Source: Terriglobia bacterium (GTDB lineage: Bacteria > Acidobacteriota > Terriglobia > JAJPHL01 > JAPKYU01). Taken from it: 64,000 nucleotides of DNA. The translations under genes were made by a program, and so were the position numbers. Numbering within the stretch: position 1 is the first letter of the stretch; every line of letters begins with the position of its first letter. Of this stretch, positions 7,291 to 63,424 are shown piece by piece. The notes beneath the pieces were generated by a model, which did no database searches, was not told the DNA's origin, and saw only the letters and a program-made list of their open reading frames with translations. The stretch is taken from positions 384,001 to 448,000 of the forward strand of contig CBDCVK010000010.1 in assembly GCA_965223005.1 (NCBI GenBank). Direction: 5' to 3'.

Positions 7291-9425
7291 CAGCCTTTCC
7301 CTCCCACTCGTGCCCGACGTAGTTGCCGGAGTGTAGCGCAGACCTCGGGCAACCGGCGAAACGCTTCCAATGAGTGGTGAGCCTTCTGACGCCAGTTGGA
7401 GCGTGTCTCTCCGGTTGAAGGAACGTTGTGGGACTGCGTTTCCAGCCAAAGGTCTTCCAAGTTCACCAGCACGATTTGAGCCGGGCTAGCCGCCAAGTAG
7501 GCCAGGCAAGCTCTCAAAACATCACCAGTCCCCGTCGACCTGGATGTCAGCCAGCCGTGGCGCCGTAAGAAACTGACCAAAGCGCTTCGGAGGGCTTGGC
7601 GAGTCTTGCGCTCGCTTTGGGCACCCTTTTGGGTGAGAAGGCCCAGAGCCAGCCGGTCTTCCACATCCAGGTCCTTCCAGTAAGCGGCAAATGGGGGCAT
7701 GTCGTGCGTGTTCAGCCCGGCCACCGAGAACGCAGGCACTGCCCGTAGCGCCCTGCGCGCCTGATGCGCAATCTCGTATTGTACAACGTACATCCGCTGG
7801 ACCCGGTGGCGGCTCATCGTCGGATTGACGTAGTAGGGTACCGTACCCAGGTTCTCGCCGACGATGCTCGTCTTGTGCCGGTGCGATTCCAGGCTCAGGA
7901 TGGCGTAAAGTTCTTCAGCCGGGTAGCGCACATAGACCCCCTGGTGGTCTTCAAAACCGTCGGGAATCCAGTACAGCCGGTGCAGGGCCATCACGTGGTC
8001 AATGCGCAGCAGACCGGCGTGCTGGAGTTGATGGCGCAGGCTGGCGATGAAGTAGCCATAACCTTGCTCCCTGATCTTTTCTGGCTGTAGAGGCCGAAAC
8101 GCCCAATTCTGCCCCGTGGTGAAGACCCGGTCGGGAGGCGCGCCGCCGGAGACCTCCGGGGCAAACGCGTTCCGCTCGCGCCACACGTCATAACCCGCCG
8201 GATGGAGACCCAAAGGTAAATCCAGATACAAGCCAGGACCGTTTCGCCGGGCTTTTTCCGAAACCGCCTGAATCTGCTCTTGCGCCAACCATTGGGTGTA
8301 AAGGTAGTAGCGGCGCACCTGCTCATCGTAGTCACCCGGTTCGAGAACTCCCTCGCGCATTGGCTGGGGCCACCTCGGCCATGGAACCCGCTGGCGGTCA
8401 GAGGCGGCCCGGAAGCGGGCATAATCTTCCAGCCCAGGATGTGCCTCCAAGTAATGCCGGAAATTCGCCATCCGTTGCGAGTTCTGGGCGAAAAAGTGCC
8501 GTGCCAATTCCTCGAGCACCTTCCGTTTGACAGCCATCCCGCGACGATAGTCGACCAGGACCGACGATCGCAGAAGGTTCAGCTCCTGCTGGAGCCAGGC
8601 GGAGCCCAGTAGTTCCTTTACGCGGGCACAGGATTCCATTTCCGGAATGCGTGTGACGTCCAGGTAAAACTCGTTCCAGAACAGCCGGCTGGCCGGTGCG
8701 TACGGGCTTGGGTCGAAGGGCTCATCGAGGTAGGAGGCTAACAGCGGCAAGGTGCTGACCACACTTCCGCCCGATTGGCCGACCCACTCGACCAGCGCTT
8801 CCAGGTCCGAGAAATCACCCGCTCCCCAACTCTTGCGACCATGAAGCGCATATAGCGGGAGGAAAACTCCCCAGGTTCTGCCCTGCCGCTGTGGGCGCGG
8901 CGCGTAAGCCTGGAGCGGTGCAGCAATGATCAGCGACTCAGCTGTGTTTCCCTGCCATTCCAGTGTGAATCGGTGATAGCCGCAGGGCAGGCTTTTGGGG
9001 CTCCTTAGAGCTTTGACAACGTACCGCACTCCTGCGTCTTCTGCTGAGCGCAGAGCGCGAAGGCCCGCAAGGTTCGAGGTCCACTGCTGCACCTCTCCGG
9101 TTTCGAGCTGCAAGCGGCAACGCGCCAGGCCCCCGGCGCGCGATGCAGGCAGGCGCATCTCGACGCGCAATGGCGCGCCGTCCCAGGAAACCGTAGCGGG
9201 TTCCAGGCAGCGCTGCCACAGGTCCTGACGGCGTTGCCGCAAGGCTGACCCGGCATCCCCGTGGTTTTCTAGGGGGGCTCCCAACGCGCGAAGCACGGAC
9301 AAGAGTGCCTCAGGCGACGCCTGTCTGCGGCGGTGGGAAACGACATCGTAGTAAGCAGTTTGAACGCCGTAGAGGAGTGCCAGTTGCCGGAGCGGACCAT
9401 CCAGACGCTCTTTGCTGAGGTTCAA
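7287..9425 (-). CDS. malQ: 4-alpha-glucanotransferase MalQ (GH77)
   Basis: [48 protein letters not shown]. Start placed at the TTG following a GGAGGTG RBS; the ORF could extend to 9500. Confidence 0.92.
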
Positions 9426-58006: not shown

Positions 58007-58720
58007 TTATTCGGAGGCCAGCGCGCGGCGGCGATCCTCGGCATAAGCGGCAAGATTTCGGTTGGCGGAGACGATGGTTTCCAGGGCCTCGGCTACACCC
58101 GGCAGGGCGGGACCGGGAATCACCACGTACAACTCATCTTCGCTCAACCCCGTGTATACCCGGTTCCCGATGCAACCCAAACTGGTGACGGCGCCGGCAG
58201 CGGAAAGCGCGGCAGGCAGGGCCATGCACGTGGGCCGTCCCAGCGCCGGCAGCGAAGAGTTCGCACCGGCGCGTGCCGCCGCCTCGCTGAGCAACATGGC
58301 GGCCGCCGGCCGGCAGGCGAACAGGACCACCTGCGGGGCCGTAGGCGCGTCGGCCAGCGGCGAATAGAGGACCGCCGCAGGCGTCCGGGGTAAACGCGGA
58401 ATCCTCGGAATCTCGTCCAGGCTCAGGTAGCCCACCGAGGTCATCAGCCCCAGCGTCTCGTCCAGTTCCCGGGCGCGCTCCGGCGGAAGCTCGACGTTAT
58501 GGGTGTAGCTGCCCACCGCACAGTTGTAGTGGTCCGCCGGAACCGTGTAAAAGGTGCGCCCCTCAGCAGCCAGGCGCCAGAAGCTGCACCCGGAGGGCTC
58601 GCTCCCGCTGAACCTGGGAAGCTGAGTCGGTTCCTCGGGGAGAAAGCTCACTGCCACCGGCCTCCTGGTTAAGCCAAGCTGCTCGCAGAAGCGAAGCTCC
58701 AGTTCTTTTCTGTCACTCAT
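58007..58720 (-). CDS. DUF169-family protein
   Basis: PVAVSF, SGCSFW, CAVG, RPTC, SLGCIGNRVY.GL..DEL. Confidence 0.8.
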   Translation of the reverse strand: MSDRKELELRFCEQLGLTRRPVAVSFLPEEPTQLPRFSGSEPSGCSFWRLAAEGRTFYTVPADHYNCAVGSYTHNVELPPERARELDETLGLMTSVGYLSLDEIPRIPRLPRTPAAVLYSPLADAPTAPQVVLFACRPAAAMLLSEAAARAGANSSLPALGRPTCMALPAALSAAGAVTSLGCIGNRVYTGLSEDELYVVIPGPALPGVAEALETIVSANRNLAAYAEDRRRALASE

Positions 58721-58751: not shown

Positions 58752-59087
58752 TTACGAGCTCAGCGCGTCAATCTTGGCGGCCAGAATGAAATCGCTTTCC
58801 GTCAGCCCGTCAATCTTGTGCGTCCAGATCTTGACCCCCACCTTGCCCCAGGCGAGAAAGATATCCGGGTGATGCCCCTGCTCTTCAGCCAGGTTTCCCA
58901 CCCGATTCACAAACTCCAAGGCGCTTCGGAAATCAGGGAAGCGGAAGGTTTTCTCGAGGTGGTGCTCCTCAACCACGCTCCAGCCGGGCACCTGTCGTTC
59001 GAGCCCCTCCAGTTCCGGCCCTTTGAGCGGCGGGACTCCGCCGCGACACGGTACGCAAGTCTTTGCGGCCAGTTCTGACACGTTCAT
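58752..59087 (-). CDS. phhB: Pterin-4-alpha-carbinolamine dehydratase
   Basis: CVPCRGG, AEEQGHHPDI, WTHKIDGLTESDFILAAKID. Confidence 0.93.
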   Translation of the reverse strand: MNVSELAAKTCVPCRGGVPPLKGPELEGLERQVPGWSVVEEHHLEKTFRFPDFRSALEFVNRVGNLAEEQGHHPDIFLAWGKVGVKIWTHKIDGLTESDFILAAKIDALSS

Positions 59088-59254
59088 CCTCCTCTCCTGA
59101 ATACCAAGAATACCACGAAACGACAAAGGGGAAACGATGTGGCGCCCGGTCCCGATCTATGCTAGCTTGGAGTGGGCGTCCGGTCCCCTGGCCGCCACGG
59201 AAATACTGATTTCCGGAACCCTCAGGAAAGGCCGCAGCGAATAGCACACAGCCA

Positions 59255-59533
59255 ATGGCACACAAAGTAAAGTGCGTTAAGTTTCAGAAAGAGCTCCCCG
59301 GGTTAGACGCCCCGCCCTGGAGCGGCGAACTGGGGCAGCGGGTCTACGACAATGTCTCGCAGGATGCCTGGAAGCTGTGGCTGGAACACCTGAAGATGGT
59401 CATCAATGAATACCGGCTCTTCCCGGCCGATCCGGAAGCGCAGAAGCTCATCGAGGGGCAGATGGAGCAATTCTTTTTTGGCGAAGGAGCCGCCCTCCCA
59501 CCCGGTTACGTTCCACCCCAGGCCAAGAGCTGA
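59255..59533 (+). CDS. yggX: Fe(II)-trafficking / oxidative damage protection protein YggX
   Basis: V.CVK...GL..PP..GELG.R....VS..AW..W......INEYRL. Confidence 0.9.
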
Positions 59534-59544
59534 GAAAGCAGCGC

Positions 59545-60810
59545 TTAGACAACTGCCAGCATCGGCGAGATCCGGAAGTGCAGGCGTCGGTGCGCTTCGC
59601 GCAACGCCTCCTCCACGGCCGCGGGCGAGGAAGCGCGGGCAAACAGGAAGCCCGGATAGCTGGCGCCCTCCGGCCAAGGCACCAGCTTCTGGTGCAGCTT
59701 GGCGGTAACGTGGACCTCTTCGACGCCTGGCACCCGCAAGGCGTCTTCCACTCCTTCCACTTCCTCGAAGACCCCGGCGCCGGGGATGGGAATCATCATG
59801 ACCCCTGCCGCTGCGCTTTCTCGGGCAATTCCGTCGAGCGACTCGCCCCGGGCGTTGCGGATAACCAGCTCCTCCAGCGACATCCCCGCACCGAAGCGGA
59901 GGGCGCGCGAGCAAAGGCCGCCGATGGGCCGCGCAGCCAAATCCAACACCCAAGGACCGCGGTCATTCAAGCGGAACTCGGCGTGCACAGGGCCGTGGAA
60001 CAGCCCCAGGGCGCGCACTGCGCGCTCCAAACACCCGGTCAGGGCTGCCTGCTCGCTCACCGGCAGTCGCGACGGGGTCACATAAATTGTCTCTTCGAAG
60101 TAGGGACCTTCCAACGGGTCAGGCTTGTCGAAGATGGCCAGAACCCGCAGCCTGCCCCGCCACATGAGCCCTTCCACCGCAAATTCGGACCCGGGAACAA
60201 ACTCCTCCACCAGAATCTGCTCGGTCTCAGCCTCCTTCTTCACCTGGATTTCGGGGCTAGCCAGCAGCGCGGCGATGCGGTGGAAAGCGGCCGCGAATTG
60301 CTCCGGGTTGTCAGCGCGAATGACGCCCCGGCTGGCGGCTAGCGACACAGGCTTCAGCACGCAGGGGAACGGGACGCAGGACACGCTCCCACCGTCGGCC
60401 GGAGGCGGCCCCTCGCGACAGGAATAGCAGGCATAGGCAGGCACGTTCAGCCCCGCTTCCTCGAACCGCTGCCGGGCAAGGAACTTGTTGTGGCAGGCTT
60501 CGGCCCCCTCGGGGCTGTGCCAGGTGATTCCCAGCGCGCGGCAGGCTACCGCAGCCGTCACTGTGGGCTTGTCGCCAACCGCCGCCATAGCCTGGATGGG
60601 ATGCTCGCGAGCGTAGCGGCAAATCTCATCGGCCGAGTGCGCAGGATCTTCAAAGTGCAGTGGCAGCGCAGCGTCCTGCCAGGGGTCTTCCAGCACGTGG
60701 CAGCGGTCGGTGCCCAACACCATCTCCAGTCCTAAGCCACGGGCCACTTCGGCAAACGCTTGCGTCTGGTAGCCGGTGGTGGTGGCGAGAAGAAGGAGCC
60801 TGGGCGTCAT
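59545..60810 (-). CDS. ATP-grasp domain protein (L-amino-acid-ligase-like)
   Basis: NKFLAR, PCVLKP..LAASRGV, LVEEFVPG.E..VEG, GPVHAEFR, AARPIGG. Confidence 0.88.
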   Translation of the reverse strand: MTPRLLLLATTTGYQTQAFAEVARGLGLEMVLGTDRCHVLEDPWQDAALPLHFEDPAHSADEICRYAREHPIQAMAAVGDKPTVTAAVACRALGITWHSPEGAEACHNKFLARQRFEEAGLNVPAYACYSCREGPPPADGGSVSCVPFPCVLKPVSLAASRGVIRADNPEQFAAAFHRIAALLASPEIQVKKEAETEQILVEEFVPGSEFAVEGLMWRGRLRVLAIFDKPDPLEGPYFEETIYVTPSRLPVSEQAALTGCLERAVRALGLFHGPVHAEFRLNDRGPWVLDLAARPIGGLCSRALRFGAGMSLEELVIRNARGESLDGIARESAAAGVMMIPIPGAGVFEEVEGVEDALRVPGVEEVHVTAKLHQKLVPWPEGASYPGFLFARASSPAAVEEALREAHRRLHFRISPMLAVV

Positions 60811-60834
60811 TGCTTGCTTCTTACAGGGCTTGCT

Positions 60835-62235
60835 TCATACAAGAGCAAACTGCTCTTCGGTGGGTTCGGCTCAACAGTACCAGGGCTCGTTCAGGTAGGG
60901 CACGGTAGTACGCTGATAGGGATCGGGAACTCGCAGCGGCTGCGTAGAAATGCCTGCCGCATCGTGAGCCAGCTCCCAGACTTGGGAGAAAATCGCCCGC
61001 CGCGAGTGGCCCTCCTTTTCGGCCTGCCAGACCCGTCGTTGGACTTGCTCACACAAGCGGGCCACACGTGGGTCGGGATGCTTCCAGCGGTAACTCAACG
61101 CGGCCTCGTCGAAGCCCCCAGCGACGAGATGCCGCACCTCCTCCAGTTCCAGCAGCCGTGAACCGGTGGGGATCAGCAGCCGGATGGCGAGCTGGACGGG
61201 CGCCACCTGCTCGACCAGCTTCAGCTCGTCCAGTACCGCCAGCAGGTCGCAGTAGCCCCGCAGCGTGATCCACGGCGTAAAGGCGACAAAGGTCGGCGCC
61301 AGCACAAGGCCGGTGCGCCGGCATAGCTCCACGACGTCGTACAAATCGGCGCGGGTGTGCCCCTTGTCCAGCAGCTGCAATACGCGATCGTCCACCGATT
61401 CCACGGCGCTGGTAACAAACTGGCAGCCGGTTTCGGCCAGCACCGGCAGCGCGGCGGCGTGCTTCCGCAGGTGCTCCACCTTGGCGGTCACATCGTAGGT
61501 AAGCCGGGGAAACTCATGGTGCAGAGTTCGCACAATTTCCAGCGAATGCCTGACGCCGTTTAGGAAATCGGGGTCGCCGAAGGTGATGTGTTCGGCGCCC
61601 GCCGCGACCTGGCGGCGAATGTCCTCCAACACCACGTCCCGTTGCACCACCCGGAAGGCGCCGTTGTAGACCGGAACAACGGGGCAGTGGCGACAAAGGT
61701 GCTTGCAGCCGCGAGTGGCTTCGGTGTAGCCGACCGTACGCAGCTGCCCCTGGCCGTCGGTTAGCTGCGCGTAGGAGGACAACTCGGGCAGGCCGCTGCG
61801 GTCCGGCACGAGGAAAGTTTGGCGCGATAGCGAAACTAGCGGCTCTTTCTGCACACCCCGTCCGTCCGGCAGTTGCTCGAGCACGCGCACCAGGCCCCCT
61901 TCGAACTCACCCCCCAGAATCGTTTCAGCGCCCAGACCACGCAGGTAGCTTTCGTTGAGCGGCGCGTAGAGGCCGTAGAAGCAGAGGTGGGCGCGAGGGT
62001 TGAGGCGGCGAACAGTTTCCGCACCCCGCGCCGCTATGCGCGTCGCAGTGTGCATCGGCACGTAGAACGCCACCAGATTGGCCGAACGAACCGGCTCTTC
62101 CTGCAGCTTCTCCCGGGAAAGGTCCAGGCAGGTGACCGAAGCCCCGGCCTGTCGCAGCCAGGCAGCGGGCGAAGCCAGCCCGAAGGGCTGGCGCCCCAGC
62201 TCGTAGGTCGAAATGAGAACGACTTCCGGACTCAT
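60835..62235 (-). CDS. CUAEP-tail radical SAM selenoprotein with B12-binding-like N-terminal domain; UGA at 60871-60873 read as Sec
   Basis: GCKHLCRHCP (CxxxCxxC), ITFGDPDF; 3' end reads YLNEPWYC-TGA-AEPTEEQFALV-TGA. Start placed at MSPEVVLISTYELG. Confidence 0.88.
60841..60857 (-). promoter_or_regulatory. Candidate bacterial SECIS hairpin
   Basis: mRNA: UGA + 13 nt + AAGAGCA-GUU-UGCUCUU, a perfect 7-bp stem with G first in the loop. Confidence 0.7.
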
Positions 62236-62340
62236 GCGGCGGCGGCTCCCAGGCGCGCTCACATTCATGATACCAAAACCCGCGCTCGGCCTGCCGGGCG
62301 TACAGCAATTCCGGCCCACGGGGGTGGGCAAGAATTCTGC

Positions 62341-62369
62341 TTGCACTCTGAGGGCGGTCTCGATATACT
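62341..62369 (+). promoter_or_regulatory. Sigma70 promoter
   Basis: TTGCAC-17 nt-TATACT, 22 nt before ATG 62392. Confidence 0.7.
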
Positions 62370-62382
62370 TTGCGACACAAAG
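62367..62382. promoter_or_regulatory. Operator-like palindrome (A)CTTTG-N5-CAAAG overlapping the -10/+1 region
   Basis: actttgcgacacaaag. Confidence 0.6.
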
Positions 62383-62391
62383 CTTGCAGCC

Positions 62392-63021
62392 ATGCCACCG
62401 GAACTGAACGAGGCACTGGAGCAGATCAGCGCGATCCGCGGGCACCTGGTGACTGCGGAAACCTTCCGCGGCTACCGGGCCGTGCCTGCTGCGGCTACTG
62501 GCGTAGTGGCGCTGCTGGCGGCGCTGGCGCAGCCGACGTTGGCCGGCGACCTGGTGGTTCAGCCTGTGCGGTACGTCATGCTTTGGGTGGGGGCTGCGGT
62601 GCTGTGCGCGGCCGGCGTTGGCGCGCAAATGCTGCTTGGCTATCTGAACTGTGCCTCAGCCCATCGGCGCGCCACCACGCGAATCGTGGTGGGGCAACTG
62701 CTGCCCTCGCTGACGGCCGGCGCGCTGCTGACCTGGATCCTGACCTGGCGGCAACCCGATTCGGTAGCCTTGTTGCCGGGCCTGTGGGCGATGCTGGTCA
62801 GCCTGGGCGTATTTGCCTCGCGGCGTCACCTGCCGCGAACCATCGGCTGGGTGGGCCTGTACTACTTGGTGTGTGGGGCCGCGATCCTGCACTACTTGCC
62901 CGGACGGGAAGCACTGGCACCGTGGGTGATGGGGGCAACCTTCGGCGTCGGCCAGTTGGCAGCCGCGCTGGTGCTCTACTGGAATCTGGAGAGAAATGGC
63001 TCGGAAGAGGAAGCAGTCTGA
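62392..63021 (+). CDS. Hypothetical integral membrane protein (about 6 TM)
   Basis: Begins ELNEALEQISAIR; hydrophobic helices; PGLW and MG.TFG.GQ motifs; overlaps the regulator start. Confidence 0.8.
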   Translation: MPPELNEALEQISAIRGHLVTAETFRGYRAVPAAATGVVALLAALAQPTLAGDLVVQPVRYVMLWVGAAVLCAAGVGAQMLLGYLNCASAHRRATTRIVVGQLLPSLTAGALLTWILTWRQPDSVALLPGLWAMLVSLGVFASRRHLPRTIGWVGLYYLVCGAAILHYLPGREALAPWVMGATFGVGQLAAALVLYWNLERNGSEEEAV

Positions 63022-63424
63022 AACCCAACCGACCGGCGGACGCTTTGCCTACGAAGGCTTGGACCGGCTGCTGCACGAACGCGCGCGCCTGGGCATTCTG
63101 ACCACTCTGGCCACTCGCCCGGACGGCGTGCTGTTCTCTGACCTGAAGGAACTGTGCGCGCTCACCGACGGCAACCTCAGCCGCCACCTGCAGGTGCTGC
63201 ACGAGGCCGGCCTGGTCGAGGTCTGGAAGCGGTTTGAGAACCGGCGCCCGCAGACACTTTGCCGCCTCTCGCGGCAAGGGCGCGAGAGGTTCCTGGTTTA
63301 CTTGACGGTGTTGGAAGAGGTGGTGCAGGACGCGGCCGTGACTCGCAGGGCGCTGCTGAAGCATTCCCGCAAGCCCCGGAAGGGAGAGGCGTTGGCCGCC
63401 TCCAGCGGCTGGGTGCCGGCCTGA
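62996..63424 (+). CDS. Winged-HTH transcriptional regulator (MarR/ArsR-like)
   Basis: LDRLLHERARLGIL..L, FSDLK....LTDGNLSRHL..L.EAG.V, RPQT. Confidence 0.9.
   Translation: MARKRKQSETQPTGGRFAYEGLDRLLHERARLGILTTLATRPDGVLFSDLKELCALTDGNLSRHLQVLHEAGLVEVWKRFENRRPQTLCRLSRQGRERFLVYLTVLEEVVQDAAVTRRALLKHSRKPRKGEALAASSGWVPA

Follow-up and report, generated by a model that had tools for sequence, protein, structure and literature searches.

A radical SAM gene of the CUAEP-tail family in a Terriglobia bacterium: a probable selenocysteine codon, a possible Sec-Sec variant among relatives and a recurrent ligase partner

We analysed a 64,000-nt stretch of DNA from a Terriglobia bacterium (the window; all coordinates are window positions unless stated), focusing on a minus-strand radical S-adenosylmethionine (SAM) gene whose ordinary open reading frame (ORF) stops at a UGA codon. 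The best overall explanation, which we consider highly likely, is that the product of this gene is a radical SAM enzyme of 466 residues from a family already on record, that its codon 455, a UGA, is read as selenocysteine (Sec), and that chemistry resembling that of ArsL may be inferred for it. The features of the gene that bear on this reading are listed here.

60835..62235, minus strand: CUAEP-tail radical SAM gene, predicted selenoprotein of 466 amino acids including Sec, with its ATG at 62235 and its true stop TGA at 60837..60835.
60871..60873, minus strand: in-frame UGA, residue 455 (predicted Sec), directly 3′ of the invariant Cys454 codon (60874..60876).
60838..60870, minus strand: predicted post-Sec tail AEPTEEQFALV, eleven codons, absent from the ordinary ORF call.
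60841..60857, minus strand: hairpin of the selenocysteine insertion sequence (SECIS) type, AAGAGC-AGUUU-GCUCUU, with a 6-bp stem, starting 13 nt past the UGA and lying inside the codons for E-E-Q-F-A-L.
61684..61707, minus strand: CxxxCxxC radical SAM [4Fe-4S] motif, C177-KHL-C181-RH-C184, invariant in 77 of 77 aligned sequences.
61423..61425, minus strand: Cys271, invariant in 77 of 77 in the family, with no conserved ArsL counterpart reported.
61981..61983, minus strand: Cys85, in the N-terminal Rossmann-like domain, present in 76 of 77 aligned sequences.

Read on the minus strand from 60897 to 60835, the end of the gene is TAC CTG AAC GAG CCC TGG TAC TGT TGA GCC GAA CCC ACC GAA GAG CAG TTT GCT CTT GTA TGA, translated as Y L N E P W Y C U A E P T E E Q F A L V stop; the table-11 ORF terminates at 60871. 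An earlier note on this DNA had read the same tail (...YLNEPWYC, TGA, AEPTEEQFALV, TGA), and both its letters and its translation were reproduced exactly. Of two candidate start codons, the ATG at 62235 is more likely than that at 62268, because the family profile described below begins four residues later and relatives start M-x-V-V-L-I-S-T. Cysteine conservation was taken from a MAFFT alignment of 77 sequences, the window plus 76 of the related loci introduced below, omitting L034 (cut), L092 (no start by the rule used), and L081 and L103 (both with tandem TGA codons).

The tail of the window copy is of a short form, with 11 residues past Sec and the ending ...QFALV. Short-tail relatives carry a hydrophobic pair at the end (PF, LV or CF), and long-tail relatives extend about 26 residues past Sec to a conserved end, ...A[E/D]xF[V/I]. 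The extreme C-terminus of the family thus looks as though it is kept for its own sake.

The read-through protein scores 633.1 bits (E = 2.5e-190) against NCBIfam NF040546, an equivalog model named CUAEP/CCAEP-tail radical SAM (seleno)protein, whose curated cut-off is 500 bits. The match covers profile positions 1-467 of 468, from residue 5 to 10 residues beyond Sec, and the protein carries both the C-U-A-E-P motif (as W-Y-C-U-A-E-P) and CxxxCxxC. We found no difference of substance between the family and the window copy, whose Sec falls at the catalogued position. Pfam recognizes only Radical_SAM (PF04055), at residues 308-445 of sequence P0001. The family that the earlier note named therefore exists, and it is described in print as uncharacterised: Haft & Gwadz (bioRxiv 10.1101/2022.07.06.499078) list it among rare CU-motif selenoproteins. 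This was the only relevant paper found in a full-text literature search on CUAEP, CCAEP and NF040546, and a search joining radical SAM, selenocysteine and 3-amino-3-carboxypropyl found nothing on the CUAEP family. The window gene is an ordinary member of a selenoprotein family that is already curated, so its novelty is low and the finding is real but known. The closest protein-database homologues are mostly 454-459 aa long at 97% query coverage and are therefore cut at the UGA; a few of them bear the NCBI name of the family.

To place the UGA in context we drew on two samples. The first consists of the best 80 (the 80 loci) of at least 558 stretches that code for a relative among 185,579 species-representative genomes. 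A second sample comprised 401 genomes of the phylum; it includes three flagged as unpublished (G024, G049 and G152), on which alone no claim rests. At the Sec site, the 80 loci carry TGA in 64 (in one of which the contig ends just after A-E), TGC or TGT in 14, and TGA TGA at the Cys and Sec positions in 2. Cysteine thus occupies exactly the position of the UGA in 14 of 80 loci, as the note had expected of homologues, and [A/S/V]EP follows the site codon in frame in all readable loci. Because the motif search for the relatives' tails itself demanded [A/S/V]EP, the nucleotide alignment is stronger evidence than this count. Across 64 TGA sequences, the first and second positions of the A-E-P codons are invariant or nearly so and the third positions (columns 6, 9 and 12) vary; variation confined to third positions past the TGA is a signature of translated sequence, so the continuation beyond the UGA is not only kept but varies as codons do.

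The hairpin downstream of the UGA shows the same dependence on the codon. Its site corresponds to columns 16-34 of alignment A1 (window 60858-60840). Among 64 TGA sequences (the window and 63 loci), 4 to 8 consecutive pairs form at this site in 49, and in the other 15 the helix is broken by one A.C mismatch at the third pair, all of these being AGUU-loop forms. By comparison, 12 of the 14 Cys-form sequences form at most 2 pairs there. All 64 TGA sequences share the loop bases A23, G24 and U26. The hairpin occurs in two registers, one loop base apart: AGUUN, with a 6-7 bp stem (29 sequences, including the window), and AGUU (35 sequences). Pairing and covariation in the three groups were as follows.

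TGA forms with loop AGUUN (n = 29): 90.1% of cells paired; 4 of 7 pairs changed on both sides; 0 of 500 shuffles reach the score.
TGA forms with loop AGUU (n = 35): 89.1% of cells paired; 4 of 7 pairs changed on both sides; 0 of 500 shuffles reach the score.
Cys forms (n = 14): 41.8% of cells paired; 0 pairs changed on both sides; not above shuffles.

Sliding the pairing partner by 1-3 columns lowered pairing to 33-61% in both TGA sets. The shuffle counts are not probabilities, since related sequences share ancestry; the contrast between TGA and Cys forms is independent of them. In the window, the isolated hairpin (25 nt) folds at -7.8 kcal/mol (z = -3.37, with 0 of 200 shuffles as good), and a seventh A-U pair is possible, giving AAGAGCA-GUU-UGCUCUU with loop GUU. 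This extended form is the one the note had drawn: its stem-loop 13 nt past the UGA is conserved and covaries, but the seventh pair is not general in relatives. A conserved hairpin shortly 3′ of the UGA, together with Cys-codon homologues at the same site, is the pattern of SelB/SECIS-type recoding. Like the bacterial SECIS of E. coli fdhF, the hairpin lies in the coding region soon after the UGA and has a conserved G and U in its apical loop; it differs from the fdhF type in its short, minimal helix of 6-7 pairs, its two registers and its lack of an Rfam model. Its binding by SelB is predicted.

The selenocysteine machinery that such recoding calls for, and that the note had asked to see, is encoded in the window's genome, which is 96% complete. 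selA (551 bits), selB (341 bits), selD (357 bits) and tRNA-Sec (78.5 bits; ARAGORN anticodon tca) all score above their cut-offs. The selD match (G000:C10:916629-917552, minus strand) contains one in-frame TGA, so that selenophosphate synthetase (SelD) is here probably a selenoprotein itself. The CUAEP family occurs in 71 of the 401 phylum genomes, in 68 of them above the cut-off; 62 of its matches carry one TGA and 10 carry none (seven full-length, three cut or partial). selA, present in 300 of the 401 genomes, is found in 70 of the 71 family-positive ones and in all 62 with a TGA form; the exception, G375 (97% complete), has a copy without TGA. Taken together, these comparisons make it almost certain, in our judgement, that UGA codon 455 is decoded as selenocysteine, and they bear out the note's reading of this codon.

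In some relatives the dyad itself appears to be altered. Two of the 80 loci, L081 (locus positions 7354-7359) and L103 (3920-3925), read W-Y-TGA-TGA-A-E-P with the same hairpin. Scanning the genome collection for the TGA-TGA pattern, for which roughly 17 chance matches are expected given the size of the search, returned 29 stretches. Nineteen of these stretches are preceded by the ORF typical of the family, carry the tail AEP..Q[F/Y]ASD.V and form a hairpin of 5-7 bp.

UUAEP loci, match at positions 301-320 of each: L183-L187, L190-L192, L194-L196, L198-L200, L202-L204, L208, L209.

The remaining 10, having neither the upstream ORF nor the hairpin, were rejected as chance matches. The 19 loci are spread over 18 genome assemblies, most of them Chloroflexota and one a Zixibacteriota metagenome-assembled genome. 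One UUAEP protein, with both TGAs taken as Sec, scores 631 bits on NF040546, and selA and tRNA-Sec were present in 5 of 5 UUAEP genomes tested. These sequences suggest that Sec can also replace Cys as the first residue of the dyad, a variant that the NF040546 family name does not cover. No paper describing it came up in a non-exhaustive literature search on tandem or adjacent selenocysteine. Should both codons be decoded, the dyad would be a vicinal Sec-Sec, consistent with a chelating or redox pair that accepts selenium at either position.

The radical SAM gene has a recurrent partner immediately downstream, which in turn lies beside an iron-trafficking gene.

59545..60810, minus strand: ATP-grasp L-amino-acid-ligase-like gene, 24 nt past the true stop of the radical SAM gene; Pfam ATP-grasp_4, LAL_C2 and ATPgrasp_N.
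59255..59533, plus strand: YggX-like Fe(2+)-trafficking gene, convergent with the ligase gene; Pfam Iron_traffic, E = 1.8e-36.

No terminator-like site was found between the radical SAM and ligase genes, which are probably co-transcribed. The best solved relative of the ligase is the L-amino acid ligase BL00235 (3VOT; E = 1.1e-41, residues 48-412), followed by BacD; both resemble it in combining ATP-grasp_4 and LAL_C2 domains. No NCBIfam model passed for the ligase. Of the 80 loci, 53 have a ligase gene, mostly directly downstream of the radical SAM gene; the others include many short loci. In the phylum sample, an ortholog (E <= 1e-40) is found in 81 of 401 genomes, distributed as follows.

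Enzyme and ligase both present: 68 genomes.
Enzyme only: 3 genomes.
Ligase only: 13 genomes.
Of the 68, enzyme and ligase within 8 kb: 41.
Of the 68, far apart on one contig: 6.
Of the 68, on different contigs: 21.

The co-occurrence of the two genes thus survives their separation, which argues for a shared pathway.

Next to the ligase there is usually a YggX or an Nfu gene, an arrangement that is not known among dipeptide-antibiotic ligases. We examined ligase neighbourhoods in 79 sampled genomes and the window, of which six were cut too near the gene, leaving 74 informative loci; in high-GC loci, ORFs were chosen by GC content per codon position before the Pfam scan, longest-ORF calls having fallen in antisense frames. 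Within 600 nt of the ligase, 32 informative loci have a YggX-like gene and 25 an Nfu/NifU-like gene (56 downstream, 1 upstream), and 5 more have Nfu just past the radical SAM gene. Ligase-only genomes share this pattern, with Nfu standing in them where YggX would be. Two unrelated families of iron or Fe-S trafficking genes thus fill the same position, and the ligase is linked to both. YggX as a specific member of the module was considered and rejected: a YggX-like gene is present in 46 of the 80 loci, and in the phylum sample it occurs in 161 of 401 genomes, comprising 44 of 71 family-positive and 117 of 330 family-negative ones. In one taxonomic family of the window's own class (f3), all 33 sampled genomes have YggX and only 5 have the enzyme.

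Just beyond the YggX gene lie a pterin-4a-carbinolamine dehydratase gene (58752-59126) and a DUF169 gene.

58007..58720, minus strand: DUF169 gene (Pfam PF02596), 0.8 kb downstream of the ligase gene.

DUF169 has tblastn matches in 9 of the 80 loci, some of them between the radical SAM and ligase genes, and is a recurrent but minor neighbour. In 36 of the 80 loci, the radical SAM gene has a divergent aconitase gene (about 893 aa) some 140 nt upstream. The window lacks aconitase at this place; its divergent plus-strand region 62370-63424 holds instead an ORF without a Pfam match and an overlapping HTH_34 / ArsR-MarR-like winged-helix regulator; this regulator (62996..63424) has no tblastn match in the 80 loci. 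Matches in 45 loci to a plus-strand "membrane protein" ORF (61873..63021) were discarded as an artefact, since they lie antisense inside the radical SAM gene.

As to what the enzyme does, its second-best named family points to ArsL: the ArsL model NF040542 matches at 282.6 bits over profile positions 2-409 of 423, about 400 residues, with the following family far behind at 41.6 bits. Although its CxxxCxxC motif is canonical, ArsL converts SAM to methylthioadenosine and a 3-amino-3-carboxypropyl radical, and the three Cys of its C-terminal RCCLKC bind As(III); removing this tail abolishes product formation while SAM cleavage is kept (10.1101/2024.02.01.577332; 10.64898/2026.04.29.721666). Tail removal also leaves iron and sulfur content unchanged (10.1101/2024.02.01.577332). 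ArsL is reported to have only six conserved Cys, three for the cluster and three in the tail (10.64898/2026.04.29.721666). The window enzyme resembles ArsL in having the same canonical cluster motif and a chalcogen-rich C-terminal tail. Because the Cys tail of ArsL binds As(III), the Cys-Sec dyad would, by analogy, hold the atom to be alkylated. The note had entertained a metal-binding version of the tail arm among other roles, and the analogy with ArsL lends support to a metal(loid)-binding version.

An AlphaFold model of the protein is confident overall (predicted local distance difference test score, pLDDT, 89.8; predicted template modelling score, pTM, 0.89), with mean pLDDT falling to 74, 61 and 43 over successive blocks of the tail, residues 441-466. 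Low confidence here fits a mobile arm in the model but is no proof of one. The best structural matches of the model are AprD4, TsrM, OxsB and MiaB, with RimO also among the neighbours; the first four share a Rossmann-like N-terminal domain and a radical SAM core, and the fold here is likewise a B12-domain-like domain plus a radical SAM core. A sequence search of solved structures found no ArsL or CUAEP-family structure, its sole match being 9ccb, a glutamine methylase (E = 1.3e-5). The mammalian thioredoxin reductase tail, Gly-Cys-Sec-Gly, with which the note had compared the dyad, likewise has adjoining Cys and Sec residues on a flexible stretch at the C-terminus. The two proteins are unrelated in fold and cofactors, the dyad here lies 12 residues from the end rather than penultimate, and there is no flavin domain, so that the resemblance is an analogy only.

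These observations allow a mechanism to be sketched. Decoding would take the standard bacterial route: SelD would make selenophosphate, and SelA would turn Ser-tRNA(Sec) into Sec-tRNA(Sec), which SelB, bound to the hairpin 13 nt past the UGA, would bring to the ribosome, with 11 more codons to be translated before the real stop. In the finished enzyme, the [4Fe-4S] cluster on CxxxCxxC would cleave SAM reductively, possibly at the C-gamma-S bond, to give a 3-amino-3-carboxypropyl radical. The flexible C-terminal Cys-Sec dyad, perhaps together with Cys271, a candidate third ligand or redox partner, might then offer a soft atom (a metalloid, chalcogen or metal) to this radical, forming a 2-amino-4-X-butanoate that the co-occurring L-amino-acid ligase could use. 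The bond at which SAM is cleaved, the part played by the tail and the identities of substrate and product are all proposed by analogy. We put forward this ArsL-like enzymology of the tail tentatively, as a possible account rather than a probable one.

Several observations weigh against the overall reading, in its chemistry or in its recoding. The match to NF040542, at 282.6 bits, misses the ArsL cut-off of 450. The tail here is C-U-A-E-P, with two chalcogens, whereas that of ArsL is R-C-C-L-K-C, with three, and RCCLKC is absent from the window protein. Cys85 and Cys271 are conserved beyond the set described for ArsL, and would be compatible as well with an auxiliary cluster or a redox relay. 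Neither an arsM-type methyltransferase nor any ars gene was found by Pfam among the 12 window neighbours scanned, and the usual partner gene here is the ATP-grasp ligase, unlike the arsM/ars context of ArsL. Thirteen of the 81 ligase-positive genomes, some of them 97-100% complete, have no CUAEP enzyme, so the ligase is not strictly dependent on it; moreover, the co-occurrence statistics make the link look stronger than it is, since related genomes are not independent. On the side of recoding, the evidence is all comparative, and it is from this that we infer selenium insertion. A 71-nt context fold is no better than shuffles (z = +0.57, 145 of 200 as good), so the single-sequence hairpin signal is local only, and it is the comparative evidence that raises the hairpin above chance. 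A permissive Rfam search of 60700..61000 returned no SECIS-type family and only two chance-level matches.

The extra conserved Cys85 and Cys271 keep alive two other roles for the tail. One, which we regard as possible but doubtful, is that the Cys-Sec tail serves as a redox or hydrogen-atom relay, swinging in to quench or reduce a substrate radical and being re-reduced from outside, as class I ribonucleotide reductase does with its C-terminal Cys pair and thioredoxin reductase with its Cys-Sec tail. The vicinal chalcogens, lying on a terminal segment that is modelled with low confidence, would suit such a role, the invariant core Cys271 could be the dyad's partner, and the tolerance of Sec, Cys and even Sec-Sec at the dyad is as expected of a redox couple. 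Yet the nearest characterised relative, ArsL, uses its tail to bind the substrate atom rather than for redox, and no thioredoxin-like or reductase gene is conserved beside the radical SAM gene.

The other role, which seems to us quite unlikely, is that an auxiliary Fe-S cluster or metal site is bound jointly by Cys85, Cys271, Cys454 and Sec455 and is consumed or donates sulfur or selenium, as in LipA, BioB and MiaB-type enzymes. This would account for the Fe and Fe-S trafficking genes next to the module (57 of the 74 informative ligase loci have a YggX-like or Nfu-like gene within 600 nt), and it would make use of four invariant or nearly invariant chalcogen residues beyond CxxxCxxC; MiaB and RimO are also among the structural neighbours. 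Against it, truncating the ArsL tail does not affect iron and sulfur content, genomes that lack the radical SAM enzyme still have the Fe-trafficking gene after the ligase gene, YggX is widespread where the enzyme is absent (the 117 of 330 genomes above), and an adjacent residue pair rarely ligates one cluster. Finally, that the UGA is a true stop, with the protein ending ...WYC and the similarity past it being the eroding relic of an ancestral Cys form, would agree with gene callers ending the protein there, with the 454-459 aa length of most database homologues and with the non-significant 71-nt fold, but is made very improbable by [A/S/V]EP following TGA in all 64 single-TGA sequences with third positions alone varying, by the curated NF040546 profile running 10 residues beyond the site, by a hairpin that covaries and is specific to TGA forms, and by selA in every one of the 62 TGA-form genomes of the sample.

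With the UGA read as selenocysteine and ArsL as the nearest model, a larger picture can be drawn, which we offer as speculative and rather unlikely in its entirety. The Cys-Sec pair, or Sec-Sec in some Chloroflexota, would carry a soft atom into an ArsL-like enzyme of the 3-amino-3-carboxypropyl-radical type, forging a C-Se, C-S or C-metalloid bond; the methionine- or glutamate-like product would pass to a dedicated ligase, the pair would be wired to YggX or Nfu, and the whole would be a widespread, undescribed small-molecule pathway of soil bacteria rather than a rare antibiotic cluster.

For annotation, the product would be 12 residues longer than the ordinary ORF call, and the part missed would hold the probable business end of the enzyme. 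The natural Sec-Sec variant offers a useful test case for the decoding of two adjacent UGA codons with one hairpin. The CUAEP-tail family is common in soil phyla, and its kinship with ArsL, its ligase partner, its Fe and Fe-S trafficking neighbours and its Sec-Sec variant provide testable leads on its chemistry.

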